A DNA stretch of 64,000 nucleotides, from contig CAZOYW010000007.1 of the NCBI GenBank assembly GCA_964584165.1, positions 32,886-96,885 of the forward strand, given 5' to 3'. The position numbers and the translations under genes are program-made. Source of the stretch: an uncultured bacterium. GTDB taxonomy: Bacteria; Auribacterota; Erginobacteria; Erginobacterales; CAZKCI01. Of the stretch, positions 1 through 30,292 are shown piece after piece (within the stretch, counting starts at the first letter, position 1; each line of letters begins with the position of its first letter). The notes under the pieces were generated by a model. That model was not told the origin of the DNA and ran no database searches. It saw only the letters and a list, made by a program, of their open reading frames with translations.

Positions 1-353
1 CGGCCGACCTTCGGGAACATCCTGGCCGCGGCCCGGAAGAAGATCGCCGACGCCCTGGTCAACTCCCGGGCGATCCGGATCGAGGGAGGCGTTTACCGGA
101 CAGGGGACGCCTTCGGCAAAAACGCCCGCGGGAGGGGGCGGGGGGGTGGAGGCCGGCGTTGGAAACCCGGCCCGCCGACCGGCCCCGGAGCGCCGGGACG
201 CTGAACCGGATCAATTCTGGGGACCGCGAGCAAATTTGGGGATGGGAAGATCGCTGCGGATTCCCGAGGTAGCTTGTCTCAAAAACAACCGCCCGAATCG
301 ATCGGGAAGATCGCGCGATCTTCCCGGGCGATTCGGGTCCAGGAGGGAGGAGC

Positions 354-713
354 ATGAAGATCGCCGTCACCGCGCAGGGGACGAACCTGGACGCGTTCGT
401 CGACCCCCGCTTTGGCCGTTGCCAGTTTTTCCTCTTCATAGACACCGACTCCTCGAGCGTGGAGGCGGTCGCCAACGAGTCCCGCTCGGCCGCGGGCGGT
501 GCGGGGATCCAGGCGGCCCAGTTCGTCGCCGGGAAAGGGGCGAAGGCCCTGATCACCGGCGCGGTCGGGCCGAACGCGGAGGCGGTCCTGAAGAAGGCCG
601 CCATCCCGGCCTACCGGGGCGCGGGGACGGTCCGCGCCGTGGTGGAGAAGTTCCAGGCCGGGAAGCTCCCGGCGATGGAAGCCGGCGGCCCCCCCGGCGG
701 GGGCGCGGAGTAG
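354..713 (+). CDS. NifB/NifX-family dinitrogenase FeMo-cofactor-binding domain protein (standalone, copy 1)
   Basis: 119-aa ORF MKIAVTAQG...FGRCQFFLFIDTD...GAGIQAAQFV, typical of the small NifX/NifB-C (DUF134-like) fold. GGAGGGAGG RBS about 8 nt upstream of the ATG. Confidence 0.75.
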   Translation: MKIAVTAQGTNLDAFVDPRFGRCQFFLFIDTDSSSVEAVANESRSAAGGAGIQAAQFVAGKGAKALITGAVGPNAEAVLKKAAIPAYRGAGTVRAVVEKFQAGKLPAMEAGGPPGGGAE

Positions 714-716
714 GCG

Positions 717-1742
717 ATGAGAATTTCGGACGCCGAGAAGCTCCTCCGCGCCGAGACCGCCCGGGTCGTCGGCTGCACGGAGCCGGCGGCGATCGCCTTC
801 GCCGTCCAGGCGGCGCGGCGGCAGCTTAAGGGGCCGATCGATCCCGCGACCGTCCGGCTGCGCCTCTCCGTCTCGCCCGAGGTGCGCCGCAACGCCTCGA
901 CCGCGGTCGTGCCGGGCATCGGGAGGCGCGGGGTGCGGGCGGCGGCCGCGGCCGGCCTCCTCTCCCGGGCCGAGGGCTTCAACCCCTTCGCGGGGCTGCG
1001 CCTCTCCCCCTCCCACCCCCTCCTCCGGCGGAGCGGCTGGCTCCTCGTCTCCACCGCCCGGAGGAGGGGGATCTTCATCCGGGCCGAGATCGCCACGCCC
1101 TCGGGACGGGCGGCGGCCGTCGTCGCCGGGCGCCACGACCGGGTCGTCTCCGTTTCCCGCGGCGGGGAGGCCGTCTTCCGGGCGGCGCGGCCGGACCTCC
1201 CGAGGTTGCGCGGGCTTGCCGAGATCGCCGGGATCGCGCGGAGGCGCGACCCCCGGCTCGAATCCTTCGCCCGCGATTTCCTCCGACGCCAGGTCCGCGG
1301 CGACCCCTCGCGGGGTCTGGTCGACGAGCTCGCGGGCCTGGTCGTGGACCGGATGAACGGCCGTCCCCTCCCCGTCCTCACCTTCACCGGCTCGGGGAAC
1401 CAGGGGATGTTCCTCGGCGTCCCCCTGCGCGACCTCTACCGGCGGCGCGGGGAGGAGGCCCTCCCGGCCGTCGTCTTCTCCCTCCTCGCCCAGGTCCACC
1501 TTTGCCGCGTCCGCAAGAGGATCTCCGACGAGTGCGGACTGGCGGTGAAGGCCGCGCCGGCCCTCGCCGCCGGATTGGCCTATGCCCGGGGAAGGAGTCT
1601 CGCGGAGATCAAGCGAGTCATGGAGCGGGTCCGCCGGAGGCTGGAGAACATGGACTGCCGGGGCGCGCTCCCCTCCTGCGGGGGGAAGGCTGCCCATGCC
1701 CTGCGCGTAGCCGGAGAAGAGGCCGGGAAAAGAAAAATATGA
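717..1742 (+). CDS. L-cysteine desulfidase / serine-dehydratase-like family protein (UPF0597)
   Basis: 341 aa with the VGCTEPAAIAFAV motif characteristic of the SDH-alpha-like/CdsB family. Starts 4 nt after the upstream stop. Confidence 0.65.
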   Translation: MRISDAEKLLRAETARVVGCTEPAAIAFAVQAARRQLKGPIDPATVRLRLSVSPEVRRNASTAVVPGIGRRGVRAAAAAGLLSRAEGFNPFAGLRLSPSHPLLRRSGWLLVSTARRRGIFIRAEIATPSGRAAAVVAGRHDRVVSVSRGGEAVFRAARPDLPRLRGLAEIAGIARRRDPRLESFARDFLRRQVRGDPSRGLVDELAGLVVDRMNGRPLPVLTFTGSGNQGMFLGVPLRDLYRRRGEEALPAVVFSLLAQVHLCRVRKRISDECGLAVKAAPALAAGLAYARGRSLAEIKRVMERVRRRLENMDCRGALPSCGGKAAHALRVAGEEAGKRKI

Positions 1743-2257
1743 GCGAAACCGCAGAGACGCCGGTCGTCTACGCTCCGATCGGGGTGATCCGGAGCGAACA
1801 TCGCCTGGCCGAGGAGACGCCGATCCAGCCGGTCTGCGCCCGCGGCTGCCGCGGGCAAGCGGAGATCAAGCCAGAGTATGCCGAGGGGCTCAAGGACCTC
1901 GACGGTTTCTCCCACCTGATACTGATCTACCACCTGCACCGGGCGGGGCCTCCCCTCCTGACCGTCAAGCCGTTTACTGACAACCGGGAACGGGGGGTGT
2001 TTTCGACCCGTCACCCCCAGCGTCCCAATCCCGTCGGTTTCTCCGTGGTGCGACTGAAAAAGATCGCGGGAACGACGCTGCACCTGGAGGACGTAGACAT
2101 CCTGGACGGAACGCCTCTTCTCGACATCAAGCCCTATGTCCCTCGTTTCGATTCGGTCGATGGCCCGCGAGGAGGGTGGACCGAAGAGGTGGCCGAGGGA
2201 ACGGCTCGGTCTCGCGGACGGCGCGGTTATCGGGGCAATAATGCAGCCAAGGACTAG
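1739..2257 (+). CDS. tRNA (adenine37-N6)-methyltransferase TrmO/TsaA-like protein (YaeB family)
   Basis: Internal ATG at 1739 (ATGA overlap with the upstream gene). GVFSTRHPQRPNPVGFSVVRL and DGTPLLDIKPY motifs of the TsaA-like fold. Confidence 0.7.
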   Translation: MSETAETPVVYAPIGVIRSEHRLAEETPIQPVCARGCRGQAEIKPEYAEGLKDLDGFSHLILIYHLHRAGPPLLTVKPFTDNRERGVFSTRHPQRPNPVGFSVVRLKKIAGTTLHLEDVDILDGTPLLDIKPYVPRFDSVDGPRGGWTEEVAEGTARSRGRRGYRGNNAAKD

Positions 2258-2262
2258 GCCTC

Positions 2263-2571
2263 ATGAAAGAGGACAAGCTCAAGCAGATAGAATTAGCCCG
2301 AAGCATATTGGGATTGGGCGAAGAGGCGACGCTCGCCGAAATCCAAAAGACTTTCCGCCGACTCAGCTTGAGCCTTCATCCGGACCGCTGCCCGGAAAAG
2401 GACAAGAAGGCTTGCGAAGAGGAGTTCAAGAAGATCGGGTGGGCCAAGGCGGTCATCGCCCGCTACTGCGCGAACTACCGCTATTCCTTCCGCCCGGAGG
2501 ACATCCGGCGGAACACGGAGGAGGGCTTCGTCGAGGACCACCTCCGCCGCTTCTACGAAGGCTGGCTGTGA
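2263..2571 (+). CDS. J-domain (DnaJ-like) protein
   Basis: 102 aa with the HPD tripeptide in a J-domain context (LSLSLHPDRCPEKDKKACEEEFKKI). Confidence 0.65.
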   Translation: MKEDKLKQIELARSILGLGEEATLAEIQKTFRRLSLSLHPDRCPEKDKKACEEEFKKIGWAKAVIARYCANYRYSFRPEDIRRNTEEGFVEDHLRRFYEGWL

Positions 2572-3254
2572 GGCCCCCCGGACCGTTCGAGACCGGGGCG
2601 CGCGCGTATGACGGATGGTATGCGAGGCACCCGGTGGCCTACGCGGCGGAGCTGAAGGCCCTGCGCCTCGCGCTGCCCGCCTTCGCCCGCGGGTTGGAGG
2701 TCGGCGTGGGGACGGCCCGCTTCGCCTCGTCCCTGGGGCTGGGCTGGGGGATCGACCCGGCCCGGCCGATGCTCGAGATCGCCCGGGAGCGGGGCGTCCG
2801 AGCGGTCCAGGCTATGGGCGAGGACCTCCCCTTCGGGGAGGGGTCCTTCGACTGCGTCCTCATGGTCACGGCCCTCTGCTTCGTCCGCGATCCCTCCCGG
2901 GCTCTCGCCGAGGCGGGAAGAGTCCTTCGCGCCGGGGGGGCGCTGGCCCTGGGGATCGTCGACCCGGAAAGCCGGCTCGGGCGGGACTACCATCAGCGGG
3001 CGGCGGGGAGCGGCTTCTACGCCGGGGCTCGCTTCCTCGCCGTCCCCGCGGTCCTCGATCTCCTGGCCGGAGGCCCCTGGTCGCGGATCGGGATCCGGCA
3101 AACCCTCTTTCCGGACGGAGGGGAGGATCGGGAGCAGCCGGTCCGGGAAGGCCACGGCGAGGGCGCGTTCGTCGTGGTCTCCGCGCGCAAGAAAACCCGA
3201 CCGCCGCGAAGTCGCGGCGGCCAACAGCAAACCGAACAAGGAGGACTTGCATGA
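2568..3254 (+). CDS. class I SAM-dependent methyltransferase
   Basis: Motif-I-like LEVGVGTARF and DxxF...LxxGGxL post-I motifs. Start placed at GTG 2568 (GTGA overlap with the J-domain gene stop). The 2136 start in the ORF track overlaps the J-domain gene and is unlikely. Confidence 0.55.
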   Translation: MRPPGPFETGARAYDGWYARHPVAYAAELKALRLALPAFARGLEVGVGTARFASSLGLGWGIDPARPMLEIARERGVRAVQAMGEDLPFGEGSFDCVLMVTALCFVRDPSRALAEAGRVLRAGGALALGIVDPESRLGRDYHQRAAGSGFYAGARFLAVPAVLDLLAGGPWSRIGIRQTLFPDGGEDREQPVREGHGEGAFVVVSARKKTRPPRSRGGQQQTEQGGLA

Positions 3255-3625
3255 AAGTCGTCTTCACCGCCGATGGAACCGGCCTGTCGTCGCCCACCGA
3301 CCCCCGCTTCGGGCGCTGCGCCAACTTCGTCCTGGTCGACACCGATTCGCTGGCCGTCCAGTCCCACCCCAACCCCTCCCGCCAGGCCGCCGGCGGAGCG
3401 GGGATCCAGGCCGGCCAGTTCGTCGCCTCGCTCGGCGCCCAGGCGGTGGTCACCGGCCAGGTCGGCCCCAACGCGGCCCGTGTCCTCAAAGCGGCCGGGA
3501 TCCGGATCTTCGTCGGGGCCGCGGGCTCCGTCCAGGAGGCGCTCGATGCCTTCCGGGCCGGGAAGCTCTCCGAGGCCGACGCGGCCACGGTCGAAGCCCA
3601 CTCCGGGATGGGGGGAAAGCGGTGA
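3251..3625 (+). CDS. NifB/NifX-family FeMo-cofactor-binding domain protein (copy 2)
   Basis: 124 aa MKVVFTADG...FGRCANFVLVDTD...GAGIQAGQFVAS. Paralogous to the 354-713 ORF. ATGA overlap with the upstream methyltransferase; GGAGG RBS. Confidence 0.75.
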   Translation: MKVVFTADGTGLSSPTDPRFGRCANFVLVDTDSLAVQSHPNPSRQAAGGAGIQAGQFVASLGAQAVVTGQVGPNAARVLKAAGIRIFVGAAGSVQEALDAFRAGKLSEADAATVEAHSGMGGKR

Positions 3626-3747
3626 TCGTAGCCGTGGCCGGGAAGCCGGCGGTGGAGCTGGCCGACGCCGCGCTCGGAGAAAGGCTTGAGGAGACCTACC
3701 GGCGCATCCGCGGCCTCCTGGCCGGAAGCGAACGGGGGGGAGCGTGA
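3622..3747 (+). CDS. small hypothetical protein (41 aa), possibly translationally coupled
   Basis: Short ORF whose GTG start overlaps the upstream stop and whose stop overlaps the downstream GTG start (GTGA at both ends). No recognisable domain. Confidence 0.25.
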   Translation: MIVAVAGKPAVELADAALGERLEETYRRIRGLLAGSERGGA

Positions 3748-4484
3748 AAATCCTGGAGGAGATCATCGCCACGCTCGACCCGGCCGCCGCCGTCCGGGAG
3801 GCCTGCATCGGCCCTTTCGACACCGCGGTCTTAAGCGCGCGCTGGGGGATCTCCACGACCTTCCGCGACGACTGCGCCTCCGGGGGACCGGCCGGCGTCC
3901 GGGGCGCCGGAGAGCTCGTCGGCCGACCCGCCCTCGAGATCGCGCGCCTCGCCCTCTCCGACCGCCTCCTCGAGGCCTCCCTGGGGATGGCCGCGGTCAA
4001 CTCGCTCCTCGACCCCGGCCGGCTCGCCCTCCGCGAGGTCAACGCCTCCCGCCTCATCGCCGAGAAGGGTCGGGGGAAGAACGTCGCGGTGGTCGGCTGC
4101 TTCCCCTTCCTCGACTCCGTCCGCGGCGTGGCGAAAAACCTCTGGGTGGTGAGCCGCCCCCCGGGGGAGGGGAAGGAAGGGGTGAGGGAGGCGGAGCGCG
4201 TCCTCCCCCGCGCCGACGTCGTCGCGATCACCGCCTCCTCCTTCATCAACCACACCGCCGCCGACCTCCTCGCCCTCTGCCCGCGGGCCTACACGGTCGT
4301 CCTGGGGCCGACCACCCCCCTCTCCCCCGTCCTCTTCCGCCACGGCGCCGCCGCCCTCTGCGGGGCGGTCGTCGCCGATCCCGCCGCCGCCCTCGCCGGC
4401 GTCCGTGAGGGCGCGCCCTTCCGCTTCCTCGCCGGCGTCCGGCGGGTGACCGCGCTCGCGGAGGGACCGGAGGCGGCGGGGTGA
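3744..4484 (+). CDS. DUF364/DUF4213-type Rossmann-like protein (putative heavy-metal/cofactor-handling)
   Basis: 246 aa. Pattern of a conserved N-terminal small domain followed by a Rossmann-like core (NVAVVGCFPFL...VVAITASSFINHT). This family is commonly encoded next to NifX-like and Mrp/MinD genes. Confidence 0.55.
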   Translation: MKILEEIIATLDPAAAVREACIGPFDTAVLSARWGISTTFRDDCASGGPAGVRGAGELVGRPALEIARLALSDRLLEASLGMAAVNSLLDPGRLALREVNASRLIAEKGRGKNVAVVGCFPFLDSVRGVAKNLWVVSRPPGEGKEGVREAERVLPRADVVAITASSFINHTAADLLALCPRAYTVVLGPTTPLSPVLFRHGAAALCGAVVADPAAALAGVREGAPFRFLAGVRRVTALAEGPEAAG

Positions 4485-5872
4485 AACCGCGCCGGACACG
4501 GCCGCCGCCGGCGGGGATCGGCCCCGCCGCGGCCATCCTGGAGTCGATCTCCGACGGCGTCTTCACCGTCGATGCGGCCTGGCGGGTGACCTCCTTCAAC
4601 CGCGCGGCCGAGCGGATCACCGGGGTCCCCCGGAAAGAGGCGATCGGCCGCCCCTGCTCCGAGGTCTTCCGCTCCAGCATGTGCGAAACCGCCTGCGCCC
4701 TGCGCCGGACGCTGAAGACCGGCCGGCCGGTGATCGGGCAGACGGGTTACATCGTGACCGCGCGAGGGGAGAGGACCCCGATCAGCGTCTCGACCGCCCT
4801 CTTCCGCGACCGCTCCGGGCGGGTGATCGGGGGGGCGGAGACCTTCCGGGACCTGAGCGAGGTCGAGACCCTCCGCCGGGAGCTCAGCGGCCGCCGCCGG
4901 GTCGGCGAGCTCGCCTCCGGGAGCCCCCTGATGCGGAAGATCTTCGACCTCCTCCCCGCCGTCGCCGCCTCCCCCGCCACCGTGCTCATCCTCGGCGAGA
5001 CCGGGACCGGGAAGGAGCTGCTGGCCCGGGCGATCCACGACCTCTCCCCCCGCCGGGCGGGTCCCTTCGTCGCCCTCAACTGCGCCGCCCTCCCCGACAC
5101 CCTCCTCGAGTCGGAGCTCTTCGGCTACAAGGCGGGGGCTTTCACCGGAGCCGACCGGGACAAGCCGGGCCGCTTCGCCCTCGCCCGGGGGGGGACCATC
5201 TTCCTCGACGAGATCGCCGACGTCAGCCCCTCCCTCCAGGTCCGCCTTCTCCGCGTTCTCGAGGGAAAAACCTTCGAGCCGCTGGGTTCGGTCCGCCCCG
5301 AGGAGACCGACGCGCGGGTCGTCGCGGCCACCAACCGCGACCTCGAGGAGCGCGTCCGGACGGGCGGTTTCCGCCGCGACCTCTACTACCGCCTGAACGT
5401 CGTCCGCCTCTCCCTCCCCCCCCTGCGCCGGCGCAAGGAGGACGTCCCGCTCCTCGCCGCCGAGTTCATCGACCGCTTCAACCGCCTCCACCGCAAGTCC
5501 GTCGAAGGCCTCTCCCCGGAGGCGCTCGCCCTGCTGATGGCCCACGACTGGCCCGGCAACGTCCGGGAGCTCGAGAACGCGATCGAGCGGGCCTTCATCC
5601 TCTGCCCCGGGGGGACGATCGGGGTCGAGCACCTCCCGGAGGAGCTCACCGGGGCCGGGCGCCCGGAGCCGGACGGGATGCGGGGGGCCCGCGATCTCAT
5701 CGAGCGGCAGGCGATCCGCCGCGCCCTGGAGGAGAGCGCGGGAAACCGTCAGAAGGCGGCGCGGGCGCTCGGCCTCCACAAGAGCACCCTCTTCCGGAAG
5801 ATCGCCCGCCTCCAGATCGCCCTTCCCCCCCGCGACGGGCGCTCCCGCCCGGAAACGCGACAGTCGCCTTAA
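4481..5872 (+). CDS. sigma-54-dependent transcriptional activator with N-terminal PAS domain (NtrC family)
   Basis: PAS-like N-terminus. Walker [15 protein letters not shown] motif (YKAGAFTGA), ESELFGY, C-terminal Fis-type HTH ([20 protein letters not shown]). Confidence 0.9.
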
Positions 5873-5997
5873 CGCTACCCCATCCGCCGCCAGTGTCGCG
5901 CATTTGCGACTCTATGCCCCGGGGCCGCGGGCGGGCGCAAAGTCCTTATCCCTTGGCGGCCAATTCGATGCAACCGGATGCTGCTCCCTGCTGTTTT

Positions 5998-6013
5998 TGG
6001 CATGCCGCTTGCT
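5998..6013 (+). promoter_or_regulatory. sigma-54 (-24/-12) promoter TGGCATGCCGCTTGCT
   Basis: Exact GG-N10-GC spacing with TGGCA and TTGC elements. Lies 50 bp upstream of the 6064 NifX-like gene and directly downstream of the sigma-54 activator gene. An imperfect palindrome GTCGCGCATTTGCGAC at 5895-5910 could be its upstream activator site. Confidence 0.6.
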
Positions 6014-6063
6014 AAAGTAATCATTCGGAATTCAATTGCAGTCATTGCGAGGAGGCGAACGAT

Positions 6064-6465
6064 GTGAAAGCGGCCTTCCCGGTCTGGAACGGGCGGATCG
6101 CCCCGGTCTTCGACGTCGCCCGCCGGCTGCGGGTGGCGGAGAAGGGCCCGGACGGGGTCCTCCGGGAGCGCGAGGAGGACCTCCCCGGCGCCGCGGACGG
6201 CAAGGCCGAGCGGCTGCGCGAGCTCGCCGTCGACGTGTTGGTCTGCGGCGCCATCTCCCGCCCCTTGCAGTTCGCGGTCGAGTCGCGCGGGGTGCGGGTG
6301 ATCCCCTTCGTGGCCGGCGACCAGGGCGAGATCGTCCGGGCCTGGTCGGAGGGGAGGCTCGCGCGCCCCCTCTTCGCGATGCCGGGCTGCCGCGGCTGGA
6401 GGCGGATGCGCGGGCGCGGCCGGTGCGGACGCGGATTCATGAACAACCCAACATTCGGGAGGTGA
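6064..6465 (+). CDS. NifB/NifX-family domain protein (copy 3) with Gly/Arg-rich C-terminal tail
   Basis: GTG start with GAGGAGG RBS. N-terminus MKAAFPVWNGRIAPVFDVARR...VLVCGAISRP...GVRVIPFVAG is typical of NifX-like proteins. C-terminal RGWRRMRGRGRCGRG low-complexity tail. Confidence 0.6.
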   Translation: MKAAFPVWNGRIAPVFDVARRLRVAEKGPDGVLREREEDLPGAADGKAERLRELAVDVLVCGAISRPLQFAVESRGVRVIPFVAGDQGEIVRAWSEGRLARPLFAMPGCRGWRRMRGRGRCGRGFMNNPTFGR

Positions 6466-6470
6466 CGGTC

Positions 6471-6659
6471 ATGCCGAGAGGAGACGGAACGGGACCGGCC
6501 GGGCAGGGACCCGGCACGGGACGCGGATTGGGCCCCTGCGGCGCGGGCGGTTCCGCGGGCCGCGGAACGGGACGCCGCCGGGGACGCGGAGGTGGAAAAG
6601 GCGACGGGAGAGGGCGCGGGGCGGGCGGGGGCCAGGGTCTCGGCCGCCGCCAGGCCTGA
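6471..6659 (+). CDS. DUF5320-family small protein (one unit), extremely Gly/Arg-rich
   Basis: MPRGDGTGPAGQGPGTGRGLGPCGAGG matches the N-terminal MP(R/G)xDGTGPxGxGPxTGRGxGxC signature of DUF5320. GGGAGG RBS. Confidence 0.5.
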   Translation: MPRGDGTGPAGQGPGTGRGLGPCGAGGSAGRGTGRRRGRGGGKGDGRGRGAGGGQGLGRRQA

Positions 6660-6679
6660 GCGGGCGAAGAGAGGATGAT

Positions 6680-7213
6680 ATGCCGAGAGGAGACGGAACG
6701 GGACCGCTGGGGACGGGGCCGATGACCGGGCGCGGGATGGGTTACTGCGCGCTCGCGTCCGACACCGCCCGACCGGGGATCCTCGAGGGGTTCGCCGGCG
6801 TGGCGGGCGCTCCCGTCAGCCTATCGGCCGCAACGAATAAGGAGGTGAGTCAGATGCCAGCAGGAAACGGAACCGGCCCCTGGGGAATGGGGCCGATGAC
6901 CGGGCGGGCCGCCGGGTTCTGCGCCGGTTACGGCGTGCCCGGCTACCTGAACCCCATGCCCGGGCGCGGCTTCGGCCTGGGCTTCGGGCGGGGGCGGGGA
7001 GGCGGAGGGAGAGGTCGGCGGAACATGTTCTACGCCACCGGATTGCCCGGCTGGGCGCGGTTCGGAGGGGCGGCTTATCCCGCCGCCTATCCCAAGCCCG
7101 ACCCGGAGTGGGAGAAGCAAGCACTCAAGAGCCAGGCGGAAGCCCTCCAGGCGGAGATGGAGGAGATCAAGAAGCGCCTGAGCGAGATCGAGGCCGCTCC
7201 CGAGGCCAAGTGA
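6680..7213 (+). CDS. DUF5320-family protein with two tandem signature units and C-terminal coiled coil
   Basis: MPRGDGTGPLGTGPMTGRGMGYC and MPAGNGTGPWGMGPMTGRAAGFC units. C-terminal amphipathic helix EWEKQALKSQAEALQAEMEEIKKRLSEIE, as in DUF5320. Confidence 0.6.
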   Translation: MPRGDGTGPLGTGPMTGRGMGYCALASDTARPGILEGFAGVAGAPVSLSAATNKEVSQMPAGNGTGPWGMGPMTGRAAGFCAGYGVPGYLNPMPGRGFGLGFGRGRGGGGRGRRNMFYATGLPGWARFGGAAYPAAYPKPDPEWEKQALKSQAEALQAEMEEIKKRLSEIEAAPEAK

Positions 7214-7286
7214 GAAACCCCAAGCCGCCCGGGATGGCCGGGAGCCGTCCCGGGCGGTTCCGCCCGGCCGCGGAAGCCCCCTCCCG

Positions 7287-8189
7287 ATGAAAACCGCTCT
7301 TCCATGCCTCCCCTGCCTGGTCCGCCAGGGACTGGAGGCGGCCGCTTTCGTCCTCAAGGACCCCGCCGATCGGGAACGGGCCCTCCGGGAGACGCTGCGC
7401 TCCCTCGCCAAGAGCGACCTCTCCCTCTCGCCGCCCGCACTGGCCCAGATCATCCACCGCCGGCTGCGCGCCGTCTCCGGGAGCAAAGACCCCTACCGGA
7501 AGGCTAAGACCCGCTCCAACCGCTTGGCCCTGGAACACCTGCCGTGGCTGCGGCGGCGCGTGGGAGAGACACGGGACCCGCTCGCTCTCGCGCTGCGCCT
7601 GGCGATCGCGGGAAACGTCATCGACCTCGGCGCCTTCGGCGACCTCCCGGACGCCGCGATCCTCCGGGAGATCGATCTCGCGGCAAACGGGCCCTTCTCC
7701 GGGGATATCGAGGCCTTCCGCCGGGCGGCGCGGGAGGCTCGATCGATCCTCTACCTAGCCGACAACGCGGGCGAGATCGTCTTCGACCGCCTCTTGATCG
7801 AGGCCCTCGGGCCGGGTCGGGTGACGGTGGCGGTGCGCGGCCATCCGGTGATCAACGACGCCACCCGCGACGACGCCCGGGAGGCCGGGCTGGAAGGAGA
7901 GGTCGAGCTGATCGACAACGGATCCGACGCCCCGGGCACGATCCTCGAAGACTGCAGCCCGGCCTTCCGGGAACGCTTCCGGGCGGCCGGGTTGATCGTC
8001 GCCAAGGGGCAGGGGAACGCGGAGACCCTCTCGGGCGTCCCGGGGAGAATCTTCTTCCTTTTCAAGGTGAAATGCGCTGTCATGGCCTCCCGCTTCGGTT
8101 TGGCGGAGGGAACGCTGGCCTTGGTCGCTTCGTCCCGCCCCGGGAGCGGACCTGGCGCCCAGCGGACCGCTGGCCGAGTCGAACCGTGA
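7287..8189 (+). CDS. DUF89 family protein (ARMT1-like damage-control phosphatase family)
   Basis: N-terminal MKTALPCLPCLVRQ signature of DUF89. 300 aa. Confidence 0.7.
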   Translation: MKTALPCLPCLVRQGLEAAAFVLKDPADRERALRETLRSLAKSDLSLSPPALAQIIHRRLRAVSGSKDPYRKAKTRSNRLALEHLPWLRRRVGETRDPLALALRLAIAGNVIDLGAFGDLPDAAILREIDLAANGPFSGDIEAFRRAAREARSILYLADNAGEIVFDRLLIEALGPGRVTVAVRGHPVINDATRDDAREAGLEGEVELIDNGSDAPGTILEDCSPAFRERFRAAGLIVAKGQGNAETLSGVPGRIFFLFKVKCAVMASRFGLAEGTLALVASSRPGSGPGAQRTAGRVEP

Positions 8190-8280
8190 ACCGCGGAACC
8201 GTTGAACCTATGGAAGAATGCATGAAAATCCTGCTCATCTTCAACCGCCCATCCTATGACGGCACGGATGTGACCCGGAA

Positions 8281-9129
8281 ATGAAGATAGCGGTCGCCAG
8301 CGGCAAGGGGGGGACGGGGAAGACCACGGTCGCCCTCAATTTGGCCCGGGCCGTGGCCGGTCCCGTCCAGCTCCTCGACTGTGACGTGGAGGAGCCGAAC
8401 TGCCACCTCTTCCTCCGGGGGGAGCTCCTCCGCCGGGAGACCGTCTCCATCCCCGTCCCCCGGGTCGACGAATCGCTCTGCGACTTCTGCAACGCCTGCG
8501 GGGAGTTCTGCCGCTTCCACGCGATCGTCGCGATCAAGTCCGCCCCGCTCGTCTTCGGCGAGCTCTGCCACGGCTGCGGCGGGTGCGCGCGGGTCTGCCC
8601 CCGAAAAGCCATCCGTGAGATCGACCGCCCGGTCGGCGCGGTGGAGACGCTCCGGGCCGGGCCGATCACGCTGATCCAGGGCCGACTCGACGTCGGCGCC
8701 CCCCTCTCCCCCCCGGTCATCCGGGCGGTCAAGGCGCGCCTCCGCGAGGGGACGCCGGCCATCCTGGACGCCCCCCCGGGGACCTCCTGCCCGGTGATCG
8801 CCGCGGTCCGCGGCGCCGACCTGGTCGTTCTCGTCACCGAGCCGACGCCCTTCGGCCTCCACGACCTCGCCCTGGCGGTGGAGGTGATGAAAGAGATCGG
8901 CCTCCCCTTCGGGGTCGTGGTCAACCGGATGGGGGCGGGAGACGACCGCGTCCACCGCTACTGCGCCGAGCGCCGCGTGCCCATAATCGCCGAGATCCCC
9001 GACGACCGGAGGATCGCCGAGGCCTACTCGCGGGGGGAGCTGATCGCGGACGCCCTCCCCGAGTACCGCTCCCTCTTCGATCGTCTCCTCCTCAATATCG
9101 AAAAATCGATCGCGAAGAAAGCGAGCTGA
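8281..9129 (+). CDS. MinD/CooC-type P-loop ATPase with inserted 2x[4Fe-4S] ferredoxin domain
   Basis: Deviant Walker A SGKGGTGKTT. Cys clusters CDFCNACGEFC and CHGCGGCARVCP. Confidence 0.8.
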   Translation: MKIAVASGKGGTGKTTVALNLARAVAGPVQLLDCDVEEPNCHLFLRGELLRRETVSIPVPRVDESLCDFCNACGEFCRFHAIVAIKSAPLVFGELCHGCGGCARVCPRKAIREIDRPVGAVETLRAGPITLIQGRLDVGAPLSPPVIRAVKARLREGTPAILDAPPGTSCPVIAAVRGADLVVLVTEPTPFGLHDLALAVEVMKEIGLPFGVVVNRMGAGDDRVHRYCAERRVPIIAEIPDDRRIAEAYSRGELIADALPEYRSLFDRLLLNIEKSIAKKAS

Positions 9130-9132
9130 TCC

Positions 9133-9384
9133 ATGCCGACCTACGAGTACGAGTGCGCGGGCTGCGGAAAGCGGTTCGAGCGGCGCCAGGCGATCACCGC
9201 GGCGCCGGTCGAGCTCTGCCCGGACTGCGGCGGGAAGGTCCGCCGCCTGATCAGCGGCGGGGCGGGCTTCATCCTCAAGGGCGGCGGCGGACGGTCGGGA
9301 AAGAACTGCTCGCTGGACGCGAACGGGCAGACCTGCTGCGGACGGTCCGAGCGCTGCGGACGGCCCGCCTGCGGGGAGCAATAG
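9133..9384 (+). CDS. FmdB-family zinc-ribbon protein
   Basis: [16 protein letters not shown]...CPDCGG signature. Confidence 0.65.
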
Positions 9385-9385
9385 C

Positions 9386-10333
9386 ATGGCCAAGGCTCCC
9401 TCCCACGTCTACGGTCCCGTCCCCTCGCGCCGCCTGAAGCGCTCGTTGGGCGTGGACCTCGTCCCCTACAAGACCTGCACCTACGACTGCGTCTACTGCC
9501 AGCTGGGGCGGACGACGAACCGGACCGTCCGGCGGCGGGAGTATGTCCCGGTCCCGGCGATCCTCGCCGAGATCGAGGAGAAGCTTTCCCGGCGGCCCCT
9601 CCCCGACTACATCAGCCTGGCCGGGTCCGGCGAGCCGACGCTGAACACGGGCCTGGGCGACCTGATCGACGGGATCAAGCGGCTGACCCGGGTGCCGGTG
9701 GCCGTCCTCACCAACGGCTCACTCCTCTGGAAGCGGGAGGTGCAGGACTCCCTGATCTCCGCCGACTTGGTGCTCCCCTCCCTGGACGCCGGCGACGAGG
9801 GCCTTTTCCAGTGCGTCAACCGCCCCCACCGGAGCCTCGCCTTCGCCCGGACCGCCGAGGGGATCGCCGAATTCACCGCCCGTTTCCCGGGGAAGGTCTG
9901 GCTCGAGGTTTTTCTCCTGGCCGGGCTCACCGCCTGGGACCGGGAGGTGGAGAAGATCGCCCGCTGGGCGAAGAAGATCCGCCCGGAGCGCGTCCAGCTG
10001 AACACGGTCTCCCGCCCCCCGGCGGAGGATTTCGCCTTCGCGGTCGGCCGGGAGGAGCTGGAGAGGCTGGCGCGCCTCTTCCCCGGCCGGGCCGAGGTGA
10101 TCAACGAGAGCCCGAGGATCGCCGGAGGCGCCCGGAAGGCCGACGGAGCGGCCGACCGGGAGATCTTGAGCCTCCTGAACCGGCGCCCCTGCACCGTCCG
10201 GGGCGTGGCGCTCGGCCTCGGCCTGAACGCCGCCCAGGCCTCGAAAAGGCTGGAGGCGCTCTGCCGGAAGGGACTGGTCGGGATCGTGCGCCGCGACCGC
10301 GACCTCTTCTTCGACGCGATGAGGGCGCGATGA
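9386..10333 (+). CDS. radical SAM protein with C-terminal winged-helix-like domain
   Basis: CTYDCVYC (CxxxCxxC) in an HVYGPVPSRRL...context; GSGEPTL glycine-rich SAM motif. Confidence 0.8.
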   Translation: MAKAPSHVYGPVPSRRLKRSLGVDLVPYKTCTYDCVYCQLGRTTNRTVRRREYVPVPAILAEIEEKLSRRPLPDYISLAGSGEPTLNTGLGDLIDGIKRLTRVPVAVLTNGSLLWKREVQDSLISADLVLPSLDAGDEGLFQCVNRPHRSLAFARTAEGIAEFTARFPGKVWLEVFLLAGLTAWDREVEKIARWAKKIRPERVQLNTVSRPPAEDFAFAVGREELERLARLFPGRAEVINESPRIAGGARKADGAADREILSLLNRRPCTVRGVALGLGLNAAQASKRLEALCRKGLVGIVRRDRDLFFDAMRAR

Positions 10334-11202
10334 CGAAGGAGATCGTCATCGTCAGCGGCAAGGGCGGGACGGGCAAGACCAGCCTCGCCGCCTCCTTCGC
10401 CGTCCTCGCTTCCGGCCGGGCGGTCATCGCCGACTGCGACGTCGACGCGGCCGACCTCCACCTCGTCCTCTCCCCCCGGGTCGTCGAGCGGCACGCCTTC
10501 CGGAGCGGGAACGAGGCCTCGATCCGGGCGGCGGACTGCACGGCCTGCGGGCTCTGCCAAAAGCTCTGCCGCTACGGCGCCATCGCTCCGGCCGCGGGGA
10601 AGTTCGCCGTCGACCCCGTCTCCTGCGAGGGATGCGGAGTCTGCGTCCGCTTCTGCCCGGAGCGGGCGATCGACTTCCCCGAGCGGGAGTGCGGGGAGTG
10701 GATGGTCTCCGAGACCCGCTGCGGGCCCTTCTTCCACGCCCGCCTCCAGGCGGCGGCGGAAAACTCCGGGAAGCTCGTCACCGCCGTCCGCCGCGCCGCC
10801 CGGGAGCGCGCCGAGAAGTCCGCCGCCCCTCTCCTCCTCGTCGACGGCCCGCCCGGGATCGGCTGCCCGGTGATCGCCGCCCTGACCGGCTCTTCGCTCG
10901 CGGCGGTGGTGACCGAGCCCACCGTCTCGGGCGAGCACGACCTTGCGCGGGTGCTGGCGCTCGCCCGCCACTTCCGGGTGCCGGCCGCGGTCTGCGTGAA
11001 CAAGTGGGACATCAACCCCCTCCTCTCCGAACGGATCGAGCGGTCGGCCGCGGCGGCGGGCGCCCTCCTCGCCGGGCGGGTCCGCTACGACAGCGGGGTG
11101 ACCGCGGCCCAGATCCGGGGGAGGGCGGCGGTGGAGACGGAGGCCGCCTCGGCCGAGGATATCCGCCGGGTCTGGCGGCGGCTGGAGGAGGCGGCGTCTT
11201 GA
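10330..11202 (+). CDS. MinD/CooC-type P-loop ATPase with inserted ferredoxin domain (second copy)
   Basis: ATGA overlap with the radical SAM gene. SGKGGTGKTS; CTACGLCQKLCRYG and CEGCGVCVRFCP. Confidence 0.8.
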   Translation: MTKEIVIVSGKGGTGKTSLAASFAVLASGRAVIADCDVDAADLHLVLSPRVVERHAFRSGNEASIRAADCTACGLCQKLCRYGAIAPAAGKFAVDPVSCEGCGVCVRFCPERAIDFPERECGEWMVSETRCGPFFHARLQAAAENSGKLVTAVRRAARERAEKSAAPLLLVDGPPGIGCPVIAALTGSSLAAVVTEPTVSGEHDLARVLALARHFRVPAAVCVNKWDINPLLSERIERSAAAAGALLAGRVRYDSGVTAAQIRGRAAVETEAASAEDIRRVWRRLEEAAS

Positions 11203-11289
11203 GCCGGGAAACCGCCAATGGGCGCGGGGCGGCCAGCCGTCCGATTCGTCGGATCCGACCGATCCGTCCGATCGGAGCGCGCGGCCGGA

Positions 11290-11410
11290 CGGGCCCGGCG
11301 GATGAAACCACGAATCGCGCGAATCTTCACGAAAGAGCCGGGGCGCTATGCTCCATGCGCGCGGTTGGGCCCGGCGGATGGAATCGCAAATTACACGGAT
11401 TTCATGGAGG
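11290..11410. repeat. intergenic ACGAAT-heptad repeat element (locus A); tandem units beginning GGGCCCGGCGGATG
   Basis: ccacgaatcgcgcgaatcttcacgaa with about 10-bp phasing. Related arrays at 50841, 54381, 58350 and 60583. Confidence 0.5.
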
Positions 11411-11450
11411 GGGCGTTTCCTGATCACTGATTACTGAGGATACCAATGCC

Positions 11451-12785
11451 ATGACCAGAGAGAGACCTTCACCGGCTGACGGACGGGACTCCGGCCTCCC
11501 GTCCTCCCCCGGCGGCGCCTCCGCCGCCTCCCCCCGCCGGCCCGGGGAGAGCGAGCGGGAGTTCGCGGACCGCCAAAAGCTCGAGTCGCGCCTCGGCCGC
11601 ATCCGCCGCCGGATCGTCGTCCTCTCCGGCAAGGGCGGCGTCGGGAAGTCCACCGTGGCGGTCAACCTGGCCGCGGCCCTCGCCCGCGCGGGCGAGAAAA
11701 CCGGCCTCCTCGACGTCGACATCCACGGCCCCAGCATCCCCACCATGCTCGGCCTGGAGGGGGCAATCCCCGCCGCCGACGGGAAGGAGTTCGTCCCGGT
11801 GGAGGCGGAGGGGATCCGGGTCATGTCGCTCGGCTTCCTCCTGGCGAGCCCCGACGACGCCGTAATCTGGCGTGGGCCGCTCAAGATGGGCGTCATCCGC
11901 CAGTTCCTCTCCGACGTGGCCTGGGGGGAGCTCGACTTCCTCGTCGTCGACTCGCCCCCGGGGACGGGCGACGAGCCGCTCTCCCTCTGCCAGCTCCTCG
12001 GCCGGGTAGACGGGGCGGTGATCGTGACCACCCCCCAGAAGGTGGCCGCCGTGGACGTCCGCAAGTGCGTCACCTTCTGCCGCAAGCTCGCCGTCCCGGT
12101 GCTGGGCGTGGTCGAGAACATGGCCGCCTTCGCCTGCCCGAAGTGCGGGGAGATCACCCCCATCTTCAGCGCCGGGGGAGGGCGGGCGCTGGCCGAGGGG
12201 ATGGGCGTCCCCTTCCTCGGCTCGATCCCGATCGACCCCCTCATCGCCGAGTCCGGCGACCGGGGTCTTCCTTTCATCCGCCACTACGCCGGAACCCCCA
12301 CCGCCCGGATCATGGAGGAGATCATCCGCCCGATCCTGGCCCTGGACCCGAAAGAATCAGCGGCAGTAACCGTGGGAGCGGCAGCCCGCCCCGAGCGCAT
12401 CGAAGGGTCCCCGCCGCGACAACGAAACCAGAGGAGGATGCCAACCATGAGGATCGCCATCCCGATCACCGGGGGCGCGCTCTCGGCCCACTTCGGCCAC
12501 TGCGAGACCTTCGCCCTGATCGACGTCGACCCAGAGGCGAAGAAGATCGTCCGGCGGACGGATCTCGAGCCGCCCCCCCACGAGCCGGGCCTTCTCCCGG
12601 CCTGGCTCAAGGAGAAGGGCGCGGAGCTGATCATCGCCGGAGGCATGGGCCAACGCGCCCAGGACCTCTTCGCGGAAAACGGCATCCAGGTGCTGGTCGG
12701 CGCCCCGTCCGAGAAGCCGGGGAAGCTGGCGGCGGATTACCTCAACGGGACACTGCGCACGGGTGAGAACGTCTGCGACCACTGA
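11451..12785 (+). CDS. Mrp/NBP35/ApbC-family Fe-S cluster carrier ATPase fused to C-terminal NifB/NifX-like domain
   Basis: SGKGGVGKST Walker A. CPKCGE ApbC-type CxxC. C-terminal MRIAIPITGGALSAHFGHCETFALIDVD...GIQVLVG NifX-like domain. Confidence 0.85.
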   Translation: MTRERPSPADGRDSGLPSSPGGASAASPRRPGESEREFADRQKLESRLGRIRRRIVVLSGKGGVGKSTVAVNLAAALARAGEKTGLLDVDIHGPSIPTMLGLEGAIPAADGKEFVPVEAEGIRVMSLGFLLASPDDAVIWRGPLKMGVIRQFLSDVAWGELDFLVVDSPPGTGDEPLSLCQLLGRVDGAVIVTTPQKVAAVDVRKCVTFCRKLAVPVLGVVENMAAFACPKCGEITPIFSAGGGRALAEGMGVPFLGSIPIDPLIAESGDRGLPFIRHYAGTPTARIMEEIIRPILALDPKESAAVTVGAAARPERIEGSPPRQRNQRRMPTMRIAIPITGGALSAHFGHCETFALIDVDPEAKKIVRRTDLEPPPHEPGLLPAWLKEKGAELIIAGGMGQRAQDLFAENGIQVLVGAPSEKPGKLAADYLNGTLRTGENVCDH

Positions 12786-13227
12786 TCGGCCCGGATCGCC
12801 GGCCCGCTCGGCCGGAAACCGCCATGGGCACGCCCACTGCCTGATGTGCGGCGACGAGAATCCCCTGTCTCTCGGTTTGCGCTTCCGGACCGGGAAGAAG
12901 GGGACGGTTTGGACGCGGTTCCAGGCCCGGCGCCTCTTCCAGGGATACGAGGGGATCCTCCACGGCGGCGTGATCTGCGCCCTCCTGGACGCGGCGATGA
13001 CCCACTGCCTTTTCCACGGCGGGGTGCGCGCGGTGACCGGGGATATGCGCGTGCGCTTCTCCCGGCCGGTCCCCTGCCGGGCCGTCCTCCATCTGCGGGC
13101 CTGGCCGCTGTCGATGCGCCCGCCCCTCTACCGGGTCGCCGCCGCGCTGCTCGAGGGCCGACGGGCCATGGCCCGGGCCGAGGCCAGGTTCATGCTCTAT
13201 CCACGGGGCGAACGGCGTAGATCATGA
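12763..13227 (+). CDS. PaaI/hotdog-fold thioesterase family protein
   Basis: HCLMCGDENPLSLGL, then GILHGGVICALLDAAM, characteristic of PaaI-type thioesterases. Start uncertain (12763 overlaps the upstream gene by 23 nt). Confidence 0.55.
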   Translation: MRTSATTDRPGSPARSAGNRHGHAHCLMCGDENPLSLGLRFRTGKKGTVWTRFQARRLFQGYEGILHGGVICALLDAAMTHCLFHGGVRAVTGDMRVRFSRPVPCRAVLHLRAWPLSMRPPLYRVAAALLEGRRAMARAEARFMLYPRGERRRS

Positions 13228-14051
13228 GGATCACCATTCTCGTCGACAATGCGGGCGCGGCCGGCCTGCGCGCCGAGCACGGTCTCTCCCTCTGGATCGA
13301 GGCGCGGGGGCGGCGCATCCTGTTCGACACGGGGCAGGGGAACGCCCTTAGGGGCAACGCCCGAGGTCTTCGCGCGCCGCTCGAGAGAACAGACACGATT
13401 GTTCTCAGCCACGGCCACTACGACCACGCGGGGGGGCTGGCCGGAGTCTTGAAACTCGCGCCCGCCGCGCGGCTGATCGTCCATCCGTCCGCCCTCTTCC
13501 CGAGATTCAGCCTCCCAGCCGGGAAGCCTCCGCGTTCCATCGGCTTCCCGCCGTCCGCCCTATCCGCGTGCCTGCGCGCCCGTCCCGGACAGATCATCTG
13601 GGCGACGAGGCCCGTTTTCATCGCCCGCGGAGTGGGCGTCACCGGGCCGATCGTCCGGCGGACCGCCTACGAGGACTCGGGGGGGCCGTTCTACCTCGAC
13701 ACCGGCGGGCGGGAGAAGGATCCCTTCGCGGACGATCAGGCGCTGTGGATCGAATCGCCCGCGGGGGTGATCGTCTGCGTGGGCTGCTGCCACGCCGGCC
13801 TGGTCAACACCCTGAACCAGGTCCGGCGGACGACCGGCGCGCGGAGGATCCGGGCGGTGATCGGGGGCTTTCACCTCGGAGCGGCGGGCCAAGACCGCTT
13901 GCGGCGGACCGCCGACGCCCTGGGGGCGCTGTCGCCGGAACTGATGGCCCCCTGCCATTGCACGGGCGAGAAAGCCGTCCGCGTCCTTCGGAAAGCCCTG
14001 GGCGAAGCGGTCGTCAGCGTGCGGGCGGGTTCGACCTTCACCTTCCGCTGA
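13224..14051 (+). CDS. MBL-fold metallo-hydrolase
   Basis: LSHGHYDHAGG (HxHxDH) motif. ATGA overlap with the upstream gene. Confidence 0.7.
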   Translation: MRITILVDNAGAAGLRAEHGLSLWIEARGRRILFDTGQGNALRGNARGLRAPLERTDTIVLSHGHYDHAGGLAGVLKLAPAARLIVHPSALFPRFSLPAGKPPRSIGFPPSALSACLRARPGQIIWATRPVFIARGVGVTGPIVRRTAYEDSGGPFYLDTGGREKDPFADDQALWIESPAGVIVCVGCCHAGLVNTLNQVRRTTGARRIRAVIGGFHLGAAGQDRLRRTADALGALSPELMAPCHCTGEKAVRVLRKALGEAVVSVRAGSTFTFR

Positions 14052-30234: not shown

Positions 30235-30287
30235 GTCCATACTGTCCATAAAGTCCATATTGTCCATAACTGTCCTATCGTCCATCC
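30235..30287 (+). promoter_or_regulatory. six GTCCATA heptamers at 9-10 bp phasing immediately upstream of the hypD ATG
   Basis: gtccatactgtccataaagtccatattgtccataactgtcctatcgtccatcc. Confidence 0.5.
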
Positions 30288-30292
30288 AGCCC

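Follow-up and report, generated by a model that had tools for sequence, protein, structure and literature searches.

The window examined here is a 64,000-nucleotide stretch of contig CAZOYW010000007.1 (positions 32,886 to 96,885 of the forward strand; assembly GCA_964584165.1) from an uncultured bacterium of the Auribacterota. Near its start lies a gene cluster that is very probably an orp locus, namely the genes that encode the orange protein (ORP) complex together with their dedicated sigma54 activator, OrpR, in an expanded, co-directional arrangement. Because the MrpORP gene product passed its equivalog model and the activator carries the OrpR cysteine triad, we treat the region as a named system rather than as an anonymous neighborhood. 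An earlier reading made from the letters alone (the sequence-only reading) had described it as an unnamed, poorly understood neighborhood, a label that gives way here to the partly characterized ORP complex and OrpR (PMC8359166, PMC3897727, PMC6345978). That reading's broader description, a sigma54-controlled module of an anaerobe that handles metalloclusters, is supported, and its statement that the function of the module is not established still holds. The role that we favor from the analysis would be the redox-gated handling of anionic metal-sulfide clusters.

The reference system is that of sulfate-reducing bacteria, known best from Desulfovibrio vulgaris Hildenborough, where OrpR (DVU2106) is a PAS-AAA+-helix-turn-helix (HTH) sigma54 activator with a redox-sensitive [4Fe-4S] cluster and is active only at very low potential (PMC8359166). 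It activates two divergent operons, orp5-4-3 and orp7-8-9, whose products include Orp3 and Orp4, MinD-like proteins with two ferredoxin motifs each, and Orp8, the "orange protein" of the NifX family, which in its D. gigas form carried a non-covalent [S2MoS2CuS2MoS2]3- cluster (PMC8359166, PMC3897727, PMC6345978). Orp9 is MrpORP, a fusion of Mrp/NBP35 and NifX domains, for which [4Fe-4S] transfer to Orp3 and Orp4 was obtained in vitro (PMC6345978). The window has in common with this regulon (DVU2103-DVU2109; Fievet 2011/2014/2021, Pardoux 2019) ORP-type NifX proteins, a paralogous MinD pair with two [4Fe-4S] sites each, the MrpORP motifs, an activator of PAS-AAA+-HTH layout that has this Cys triad, a sigma54 promoter with candidate palindromic sites before it, and small Cys-containing proteins.

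Identity of the locus

Genes in the window, whose G+C content is ~70%, were called by third-position GC bias and then checked against Pfam and NCBIfam (Table 1). Weak hints at its taxonomy came from a housekeeping phosphomannomutase (Ca. Auribacterota 71%, Sericytochromatia 65%). Every gene between 354 and 14051 lies on the + strand, with neighbors overlapping or closely spaced. Given these overlaps and short gaps, and since no convincing intrinsic terminator was found on the + strand within the cluster, we infer two operons: an upstream operon that includes orpR (354-5872) and a sigma54 operon that starts at 6064 and reaches 12785 at the least, more probably 14051.

The gene at 11451-12785 encodes MrpORP, which scored 515.4 bits against the NCBIfam equivalog NF041136 (cut-off 450). 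Its motifs are those described for the family (PMC6345978), i.e. GKGGVGKS, CPKC, SAHFGHCE, PPPHEPG and a terminal CDH, with the first Cys of CXHFGHCE replaced by Ser as in most close homologues. The C-terminal NifX-type domain matched PF02579 at 67 bits. Two further NifX-family proteins, ORPa and ORPb, are encoded upstream of orpR and are 55% identical to each other (BLASTP). ORPa, the equivalent of Orp8, matched the solved structures of MTH1175 (1EO1, E 3.8e-19) and D. gigas ORP (2WFB, E 8e-19), while ORPb (3293-3625) matched 2WFB with an E value of 2e-14 and MTH1175 as well.

Both MinD-type ATPases have the deviant Walker A sequence GKGGTGKT and two CxxCxxCxxxC motifs each, which in copy A read CDFCNACGEFC and CHGCGGCARVC. 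The two copies are 32% identical and 46% similar (BLASTP), and archaeal MinD structures are their best PDB matches. They share with the CooC/NifH/MinD family the deviant Walker A P-loop, from which a dimer is expected, and the association with metallocluster proteins, but they differ in their inserted two-[4Fe-4S] ferredoxin domain and in always occurring here as a paralogous pair.

The sigma54 operon begins with a divergent NifX-fold protein, NifXdiv, which had no sequence match in the PDB. Aligned as families by hhalign, NifXdiv and ORP proteins matched with a probability of 98.8% (E 1e-16). NifXdiv proteins are marked by a conserved internal LVCGAISR (LxCGAISR across the family) and by a conserved MPGC directly after the fold. 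In the window this is followed by a Cys-containing tail whose 38 residues include 8 Gly, 10 Arg/Lys and 4 aromatic ones and whose isoelectric point (pI) is ~12; such an Arg/Gly-rich tail (pI 10.5-12) follows the MPGC in 30 of 35 NifXdiv orthologues. The DUF5320 proteins encoded next start with MPRGDGTGPxGxGPMTGRGxGxC, continue with a stretch rich in Gly, Arg and aromatic residues, and end in a coiled-coil-like C-terminal region. They contain 18-45% Gly, along with Arg and aromatic residues, and have a pI of 9-12. The shorter of them has homologues with 48-80% identity in four related loci (L008, L033, L047 and L080).

This inventory agrees with the gene content that the sequence-only reading had proposed. 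All four of its NifX-type domains, three standalone and one fused to Mrp/NBP35, carry PF02579, and its two ferredoxin-insert MinD ATPases and its PAS-sigma54-HTH activator were likewise found. The DUF364, DUF89, radical S-adenosylmethionine (SAM) and FmdB genes and the three DUF5320 units matched Pfam or NCBIfam at or very near the places it had given them. Its interval of 354-12785 was right in its contents, but it had overlooked four genes inside (the CyuA-like, TrmO-like, J-domain and methyltransferase genes), and the cluster continues past 12785.

The OrpR-type activator and its regulatory region

The only cysteines of the activator's PAS domain are C59, C68 and C72, which reproduce the C-x8-C-x3-C spacing of OrpR and have an acidic residue (Glu61) at +2. 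The cluster ligands of D. vulgaris OrpR are C52/C61/C65 (PMC8359166). The triad and the acidic +2 residue are kept in 29/30 OrpR-like open reading frames (ORFs) of related loci, the exception being an unrelated activator.

Upstream of its promoter D. vulgaris has two imperfect OrpR-binding palindromes, GGGCGYRTTTTGCGCCC. The corresponding part of the window holds a 16-bp palindrome, GTCGCGCATTTGCGAC (5895-5910), and a half-site, GGGCGCAAAG (5933-5942), the latter being the reverse complement of the D. vulgaris motif half GGGCGCAAA (motif from PMC8359166). Related loci have paired GC-rich palindromes of the form GTnGCA-N4-5-TGCnAC directly after the orpR stop codon. We consider the 5895-5942 elements to be candidate, predicted OrpR sites.

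The sequence-only reading had also described a "perfect" -24/-12 promoter in the middle of the cluster. The element, TGGCATgccgcTTGCT, is present with a GG/GC core and correct spacing, but it departs from TGGCAC at one position and so is not perfect. It lies 50 nt before the GTG start at 6064, with a ribosome-binding site, GAGGAGG, at 6049-6055. Since a bare -24/-12 pattern is non-significant in the window (2 matches vs 1.9 expected), the weight of the promoter comes from this position and from its conservation in related loci. When the spacer downstream of orpR (5873-6063) was compared with its equivalents from 20 related loci, GGYAY-N6-YGCW was found on the coding strand in 19 of the 21 spacers, compared with a mean of 0.25 and a maximum of 3 in 1000 shuffles. 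The remaining two spacers contained near matches.

Several observations count against the identification as an orp locus. The D. vulgaris genes form two divergent sigma54 operons, whereas in the window all genes of the locus point the same way and one sigma54 promoter was detected; a second sigma54 element was sought in the other intergenic gaps and none was found. The activator has GAFTGA where D. vulgaris OrpR has GAFTDA (PMC4641369), and MrpORP of the window has no Cys before Walker A, although CxxCx4C...LC is present there in 9/11 aligned homologues. No match to the integration host factor (IHF) consensus WATCARNNNNTTR was found on either strand of 5861-6060, a stretch that takes in the sequence between the palindromes and the promoter where the D. 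vulgaris type has its IHF site, this consensus being of the E. coli type and perhaps unsuited to a 70% G+C genome, and rpoN was not seen. Direct comparison with known orp proteins was made for ORP, through the D. gigas structure 2WFB, and for MrpORP, through the NCBI model; the proposed identity of the remaining orp parts rests on architecture, motifs and synteny.

The window further differs from the D. vulgaris orp genes in having two ORP paralogues, placed upstream of orpR, and ~10 extra genes, which encode CyuA-like, TrmO-like, J-domain, methyltransferase, DUF364, DUF89, FmdB, radical SAM, hotdog and metallo-beta-lactamase (MBL) proteins. The locus itself is a known kind of system with lineage-specific additions and a rearranged layout.

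Table 1. Features of the orp locus and its flanks (positions in the window; a dot marks features given without a strand).
Feature	Position	Strand	Evidence
3' end of DUF134 gene	1..204	+	Pfam PF02001; full gene 129 aa on source contig
Inverted repeat, 46 bp, two 23-nt arms 91% complementary	292..337	.	Repeat search
ORPa, ORP/MTH1175-type NifX-family protein, 119 aa, equivalent to Orp8	354..713	+	PF02579 76.7 bits
Divergent CyuA-like [4Fe-4S] L-cysteine desulfidase homologue (provisional), 341 aa	717..1742	+	PF03313 (SDH_alpha)
TrmO_N/TsaA-like protein, N-domain only, 172 aa	1739..2257	+	PF01980 137 bits; TIGR00104 125.6 bits (cut-off 93)
Small J-domain protein, 102 aa, HPD motif	2263..2571	+	PF00226
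Class I SAM methyltransferase, start uncertain (2568 or 2634)	~2568..3254	+	PF08241; gene calls in L001/L002
ORPb, second ORP-type NifX-family protein, 124 aa	3251..3625	+	PF02579 78.5 bits
DUF4213+DUF364 protein ("putative heavy-metal chelation")	3744..4484	+	Pfam; PDB 3L5O E 5e-18
OrpR-type enhancer-binding protein: PAS, AAA+ (GAFTGA), Fis-type HTH	4481..5872	+	Pfam
Candidate OrpR upstream activating sequences (palindrome and half-site)	5895..5942	.	
Sigma54 -24/-12 promoter	5998..6013	+	Pattern and conservation
NifXdiv, divergent NifX-fold protein, 133 aa, first gene of sigma54 operon	6064..6465	+	PF02579 27.0 bits (cut-off 26.3)
Short DUF5320-type ORF, 62 aa, 45% Gly, pI 12, starts MPRGDGTGPxGxGPGTGRGxGxC	6471..6659	+	Sequence
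DUF5320 protein with two N-motif units	6680..7213	+	PF17253 136.9 bits, 2 stretches
DUF89/ARMT1-like metal-dependent phosphatase	7287..8189	+	PF01937 194 bits; NCBIfam damage-control phosphatase model below cut-off
MinD-type ATPase copy A, inserted 2x[4Fe-4S] ferredoxin domain, Orp3/Orp4-like	8281..9129	+	Pfam MinD/CbiA
FmdB-family zinc ribbon protein	9133..9384	+	PF09723, TIGR02605
Radical SAM protein (COG0731/TYW1-like label), C-terminal winged-helix domain	9386..10333	+	PF04055
MinD-type ATPase copy B, inserted 2x[4Fe-4S] ferredoxin domain, Orp3/Orp4-like	10330..11202	+	Pfam MinD/CbiA
MrpORP (Orp9), Mrp/NBP35 P-loop domain fused to NifX-type domain	11451..12785	+	NF041136 equivalog
Hotdog-fold (4HBT) thioesterase	12844..13227	+	PF03061
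MBL-fold metallo-hydrolase	13224..14051	+	PF00753
NifU_N/IscU-type Fe-S scaffold, convergent to cluster	14148..14630	-	PF01592

Conservation among MrpORP loci

The comparison of gene neighborhoods that the sequence-only reading had suggested was carried out by scanning one genome per species with an alignment of MrpORP homologues, which gave 80 loci (D. vulgaris Hildenborough not among them), and by searching these loci with 23 window proteins using tblastn. The MinD-ferredoxin pair lay beside MrpORP in 43 of the 80 loci. Within these 43 loci the most frequent partners were ORP (84%), NifXdiv (58%), OrpR and the MBL hydrolase (53% each), DUF5320 (51%) and NifU (42%), followed by the radical SAM protein (30%), the TrmO-like protein (26%), FmdB and DUF89 (21% each), the hotdog thioesterase (19%) and DUF364 (5%), all of these frequencies being lower bounds because many contigs are short. 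CyuA-like and J-domain genes were absent from the pair-bearing loci (0%), and tblastn found no homologue of the CyuA-like protein in any of the 80 other MrpORP loci, the J-domain protein likewise being seen in this lineage only.

The commonest gene order was OrpR, divergent NifX, DUF5320, ORP, (TrmO), MinD-ferredoxin, (FmdB, radical SAM), MinD-ferredoxin, (NifU), MrpORP, (hotdog), MBL. L035, L006, L009, L010 and L054 have this order, and Pfam annotation of the contigs L086 and L087 shows it too. In orp loci the TrmO-like gene usually stands between ORP and the first MinD-ferredoxin gene, and the hotdog gene always follows MrpORP. Relative to this order, the window has its (duplicated) ORP genes and TrmO shifted upstream of orpR, an upstream operon that has gained CyuA-like, J-domain, methyltransferase and DUF364 genes, DUF89 within the sigma54 operon, and NifU unlinked on the opposite strand. 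In many relatives NifU is fused to MrpORP or lies directly upstream of it, and PF01592 is part of the 550-aa MrpORP homologues; the 249-bp gap that precedes MrpORP in the window (11203-11450) was searched for a trace of NifU, and none was found.

Most related loci are co-directional, like the window. A divergent layout resembling that of D. vulgaris was observed in L088 (2147-11323 of a JGI 3300056973 contig), which also has three gene fusions: radical SAM-NifX (P0326, 440 aa), NifX-DUF5320 (254 aa), and a cation-efflux (CDF)-NifX protein (420 aa) beside DUF364. L086 (GCA_040768985.1, 5.0-Mb contig) has two further partners, related to iron and cysteine, that are absent from the window, namely a ferritin/rubrerythrin-like gene between DUF5320 and ORP (5915-6415) and a CGGC-domain gene after MrpORP (11768-12211). 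The only match in a cultured member of the Desulfovibrionaceae, Halodesulfovibrio (L060), was an Mrp-NifX protein with 42% identity and no orp neighbors.

Work on the ORP system over ~20 years, almost solely in Desulfovibrio, has not revealed its function, and a 2021 paper thought OrpR restricted to Deltaproteobacteria (PMC8359166). The related loci carry the submitter labels Acidobacteriota, Planctomycetota, Verrucomicrobiota, Gemmatimonadota, Latescibacteria, Spirochaetota, Lentisphaerae, Synergistaceae, Armatimonadota, Myxococcales and several Desulfobacterota; OrpR-type regulators with an intact triad stand beside orp genes in genomes labeled Acidobacteriota, Planctomycetota, Verrucomicrobiota, Gemmatimonadota, Spirochaetota and others. 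The comparison also enlarges the set of conserved partners by DUF5320, the Cys-tailed FmdB, the COG0731-type radical SAM protein, the TrmO-like protein, DUF89, hotdog, MBL and NifU. Fusions tie these partners together (NifX-DUF5320, radical SAM-NifX, cation-efflux-NifX and NifU-MrpORP), and in this lineage only, a CyuA-like cysteine desulfidase gene stands beside an ORP gene. Partners and fusions lead to concrete, testable hypotheses on the handling of iron-sulfur (Fe-S) clusters or thiometallates in anaerobes.

Proposed working of the module and competing explanations

By analogy with D. vulgaris, OrpR would hold a [4Fe-4S] cluster on its three PAS cysteines and be active only at very low redox potential. 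Bound to the palindromes at 5895-5942, it would then switch on sigma54-RNA polymerase at 5998-6013 and so cause transcription of a single long operon that starts at 6064 and extends at least as far as 12785, probably as far as 14051. The products would be the cationic-tailed NifX-fold protein, the Gly/Arg-rich DUF5320 proteins, the two MinD-type ATPases with two [4Fe-4S] sites each, and the carrier MrpORP. The NifU-type scaffold may feed MrpORP, which would load Fe-S clusters onto the two ATPases, a transfer shown in vitro for the Desulfovibrio proteins. An anionic metal-sulfide cluster would be bound non-covalently by the ORP-type NifX proteins, and the ATPase pair may assemble this cluster, move it or deliver it at the expense of ATP and of electrons from its ferredoxin domains. 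The upstream operon would contribute orpR, the two ORP paralogues and lineage-specific helpers, including the CyuA-like enzyme, which could supply sulfide.

More specific on function, and compatible with redox-gated cluster handling, is the proposal that the module stores and mobilizes Fe-S (thioferrate-like) material or thiometallates in the manner of IssA, the thioferrate storage protein of Pyrococcus furiosus; we regard this as possible though on balance unlikely. IssA is a NifX-family protein (IPR003731) of the MTH1175 clade, whose cationic tail, rich in Gly and aromatic residues, has been proposed to hold anionic thioferrate (PMC5524996). Several features of the window and of its relatives fit this proposal. 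The best solved relative of ORPa, MTH1175, has been placed in the IssA clade, and the Arg/Gly-rich NifXdiv tails (30/35) and the composition of DUF5320 match the chemistry of IssA/"IssX" tails (PMC5524996). NifX-DUF5320 fusions occur in four related loci (L034, L047, L064 and L088), the L086 cluster includes a ferritin-like gene, L088 has a cation-efflux-NifX fusion after DUF364, and the CyuA-like gene for a predicted sulfide-releasing enzyme adjoins ORPa. Moreover, expression of the D. vulgaris orp genes is lost when gas sparging raises the potential of the medium, and the authors suggested loss of H2S as a possible cause (PMC8359166). In common with IssA the window has an MTH1175/IssA-type NifX fold and an anaerobic, sulfide-rich context, and its 6064 protein and DUF5320 proteins have unstructured sequence of comparable composition, being cationic, rich in glycine and with aromatic residues. 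However, the tail similarity is one of composition only: the IssA tail has 70 residues, whereas that of the window is much shorter and contains Cys, most of the Gly/Arg-rich sequence being on separate DUF5320 proteins. IssA also works by itself and has neither MinD-type ATPases nor MrpORP nor a sigma54 regulator. Further points against the proposal are that D. gigas ORP as isolated held a Mo-Cu cluster rather than Fe-S, and that transfer of the [3Fe-4S] cluster found in the NifX domain of MrpORP was not efficient (PMC6345978). In its fullest form the idea would make the extended orp cluster, which occurs in many anaerobic phyla, a bacterial counterpart of archaeal IssA, a low-potential, high-sulfide machine that stores and mobilizes inorganic metal sulfide: NifX-fold, DUF5320 and tail sequences would capture an anionic iron-sulfide polymer or thiometallate, the radical SAM enzyme (fused to NifX in some species, as in NifB) would remodel it, the ATPases, MrpORP and NifU would make deliverable [4Fe-4S], and in this lineage the CyuA-like enzyme would feed in sulfide. 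This fuller version is speculative and rather unlikely; were it true, the Mo-Cu "orange" cluster would be a side effect, and so would the cell-division phenotype.

The published working hypothesis for D. vulgaris is a MinD-like positioning or cell-division device in which the ATPases act at the pole to influence septum placement and the metal proteins only supply cofactors or sense redox state. Inactivation of orpR led to morphological defects, MrpORP localizes to the pole (PMC8359166, PMC6345978), and in the window both ATPases, which are of the MinD family with archaeal MinD as best PDB matches and a deviant Walker A, have C-termini that can form amphipathic helices. We nonetheless consider such a device improbable, given that neither MinC/MinE nor other division genes are present in the cluster or in the Pfam-annotated related loci examined, that the genes conserved alongside encode metal-cluster proteins and enzymes acting on small molecules (NifX types, NifU, radical SAM, phosphatase, thioesterase, MBL hydrolase), and that ferredoxin inserts are atypical of positioning ATPases and resemble the cluster-handling logic of CooC/NifH. 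Handling of molybdenum or tungsten (Mo/W) sulfides, i.e. thiomolybdate or thiotungstate, for detoxification or for supply to Mo/W enzymes, follows from the [S2MoS2CuS2MoS2]3- cluster of D. gigas and from the clear homology of ORPa and ORPb to the Mo-Cu-binding ORP, and a transcriptome paper on A. fulgidus speculated on a link to molybdopterin enzymes (PMC3949148). The best, very weak, NCBIfam matches of the radical SAM protein include a tungsten-cofactor maturase and MoaA, but they fall far below their cut-offs (35 vs 380 bits), and neither transporters nor enzymes for Mo/W, nor genes of pterin synthesis, were found in the cluster, the 64-kb window, the 10 kb upstream or the related neighborhoods examined. 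Since the Mo-Cu cluster assembles spontaneously from thiomolybdate and copper, it may be adventitious, and with this added we judge Mo/W handling quite improbable. Finally, NifX-type domains and CooC/NifH-like ATPases are typical of the maturation systems of nitrogenase, carbon monoxide dehydrogenase (CODH) and [NiFe]-hydrogenase, and hypD, a membrane Ech/Mbh-like complex and a HypE-like gene lie in the same window. An ordinary accessory region of such an enzyme is nevertheless very improbable: neither nifHDKENB nor CODH genes, nor any other adjacent client enzyme, were found within the 64 kb of the window or in the 10 kb upstream of it, which agrees with the sequence-only reading's statement that nitrogenase genes are absent and goes against the finding it had named as its refutation (nifHDK or another known client enzyme just outside the window), and the hydrogenase genes are at least 17 kb away behind ~15 unrelated genes, which leaves its suggestion of hydrogenase or CODH as client without support from adjacency. 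Likewise, no recurrent hydrogenase, nitrogenase or CODH neighbor was found in the related orp loci examined.

The nitrogenase cofactor proteins NifB, NifX and NafY share with the window a PF02579 domain that binds complex Fe-S clusters non-covalently, and the window likewise has a radical SAM enzyme, encoded in the same operon. Unlike those systems, the window has no nitrogenase or NifEN, and its radical SAM protein is not fused to NifX.

Partner genes and surroundings

The radical SAM protein belongs to a large, well-conserved family with widespread homologues of ~60% identity. It had no informative NCBIfam or PDB sequence match, and its AlphaFold model (pLDDT 77.5) matched pyruvate formate-lyase activating enzyme (PFL-AE), viperin, DesII, TYW1, NifB and MoaA about equally. 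No NifB model was among the NCBIfam matches listed, and the fold search ranked NifB at 11-20 with a TM-score of ~0.5, the same as many others. Its homologue P0326 in L088, however, is fused to a NifX domain, which is the architecture of NifB. The adjacent FmdB protein has a Cys-rich C-terminal motif, CSL..G.TCCG...RC...PCG, that is kept in homologues from ten loci (L006, L009, L010, L022, L025, L028, L031, L037, L042 and L049) and is a candidate cluster-binding tail or radical SAM substrate. It is possible that FmdB corresponds to the small [2Fe-2S] protein which the literature describes for the ORP operon. The literature yielded nothing relevant on DUF5320, nor on ORP function after 2021. Between DUF89 and the first MinD-ferredoxin gene, at 8211-8285, there is a 24-codon ORF, MEECMKILLIFNRPSYDGTDVTRK, which may be what is left of a gene or may have arisen by chance.

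In the upstream operon, the CyuA-like protein matched L-cysteine desulfidase structures (PDB 9HE0/9FSL, E 2.8e-9) and no NCBIfam family. It is shorter than CyuA of M. maripaludis/M. jannaschii (341 aa vs ~400 aa; PMC12647591), but the Cys/Glu dyad (in GCTEP), the SGN motif and the three [4Fe-4S] cysteines are all kept, aligning with C23/E25 and C287/C329/C336 of MmCyuA (residues from PMC12647591). With its low overall similarity and no NCBIfam match, its membership in the CyuA family is provisional. A methyltransferase gene follows TrmO_N in L086 as well but is rare in other loci, and DUF364 is found in orp contexts elsewhere in L042, L068 and L088.

The DUF134 protein, whose gene ends at the 5' edge of the window, has a weak HTH resembling sigma70 region 4, and DUF134 adjoins Mrp/ORP genes in four related loci (L006, L040, L057 and L068); it is a possible second regulator. 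The inverted repeat between this gene and ORPa contains two of three copies of an 11-mer, GGGAAGATCGC (244-254, 304-314 and, inverted, 315-325), and may be an operator, for which the DUF134 HTH protein would be a candidate ligand, or a terminator. The 10 kb upstream on the source contig carry the remaining part of the DUF134 gene along with a divergent Bmp/ABC transporter.

Downstream of the cluster come unrelated housekeeping genes and then hypD (30260-31561). On the - strand at ~31.7-39 kb we observed an Ech/Mbh/Hyf-like membrane complex, comprising a small subunit that contains a ferredoxin domain (31736-32674), antiporter-like subunits (34010-35491 and 37061-39037), a NuoH-like subunit (36133-37053) and an HTH-PTS_EIIA regulator (39034-39750); its large subunit was not located among the ORFs tested. 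Between this hydrogenase-like/hypD region and the HypE-like gene (49766-50821) lies a low-GC island, 40000-49700, with 46-50% G+C compared with ~68% around it. According to PADLOC, it encodes a RelA/SpoT-like protein (41436-42482; PDC-S33), a 993-aa SMC/AAA_21 ATPase (42864-45845; Ppl, 3e-27) and a TIR effector-like protein (45971-46417; Effector/PycTIR), and from its composition and gene content it looks like a horizontally acquired defense island.

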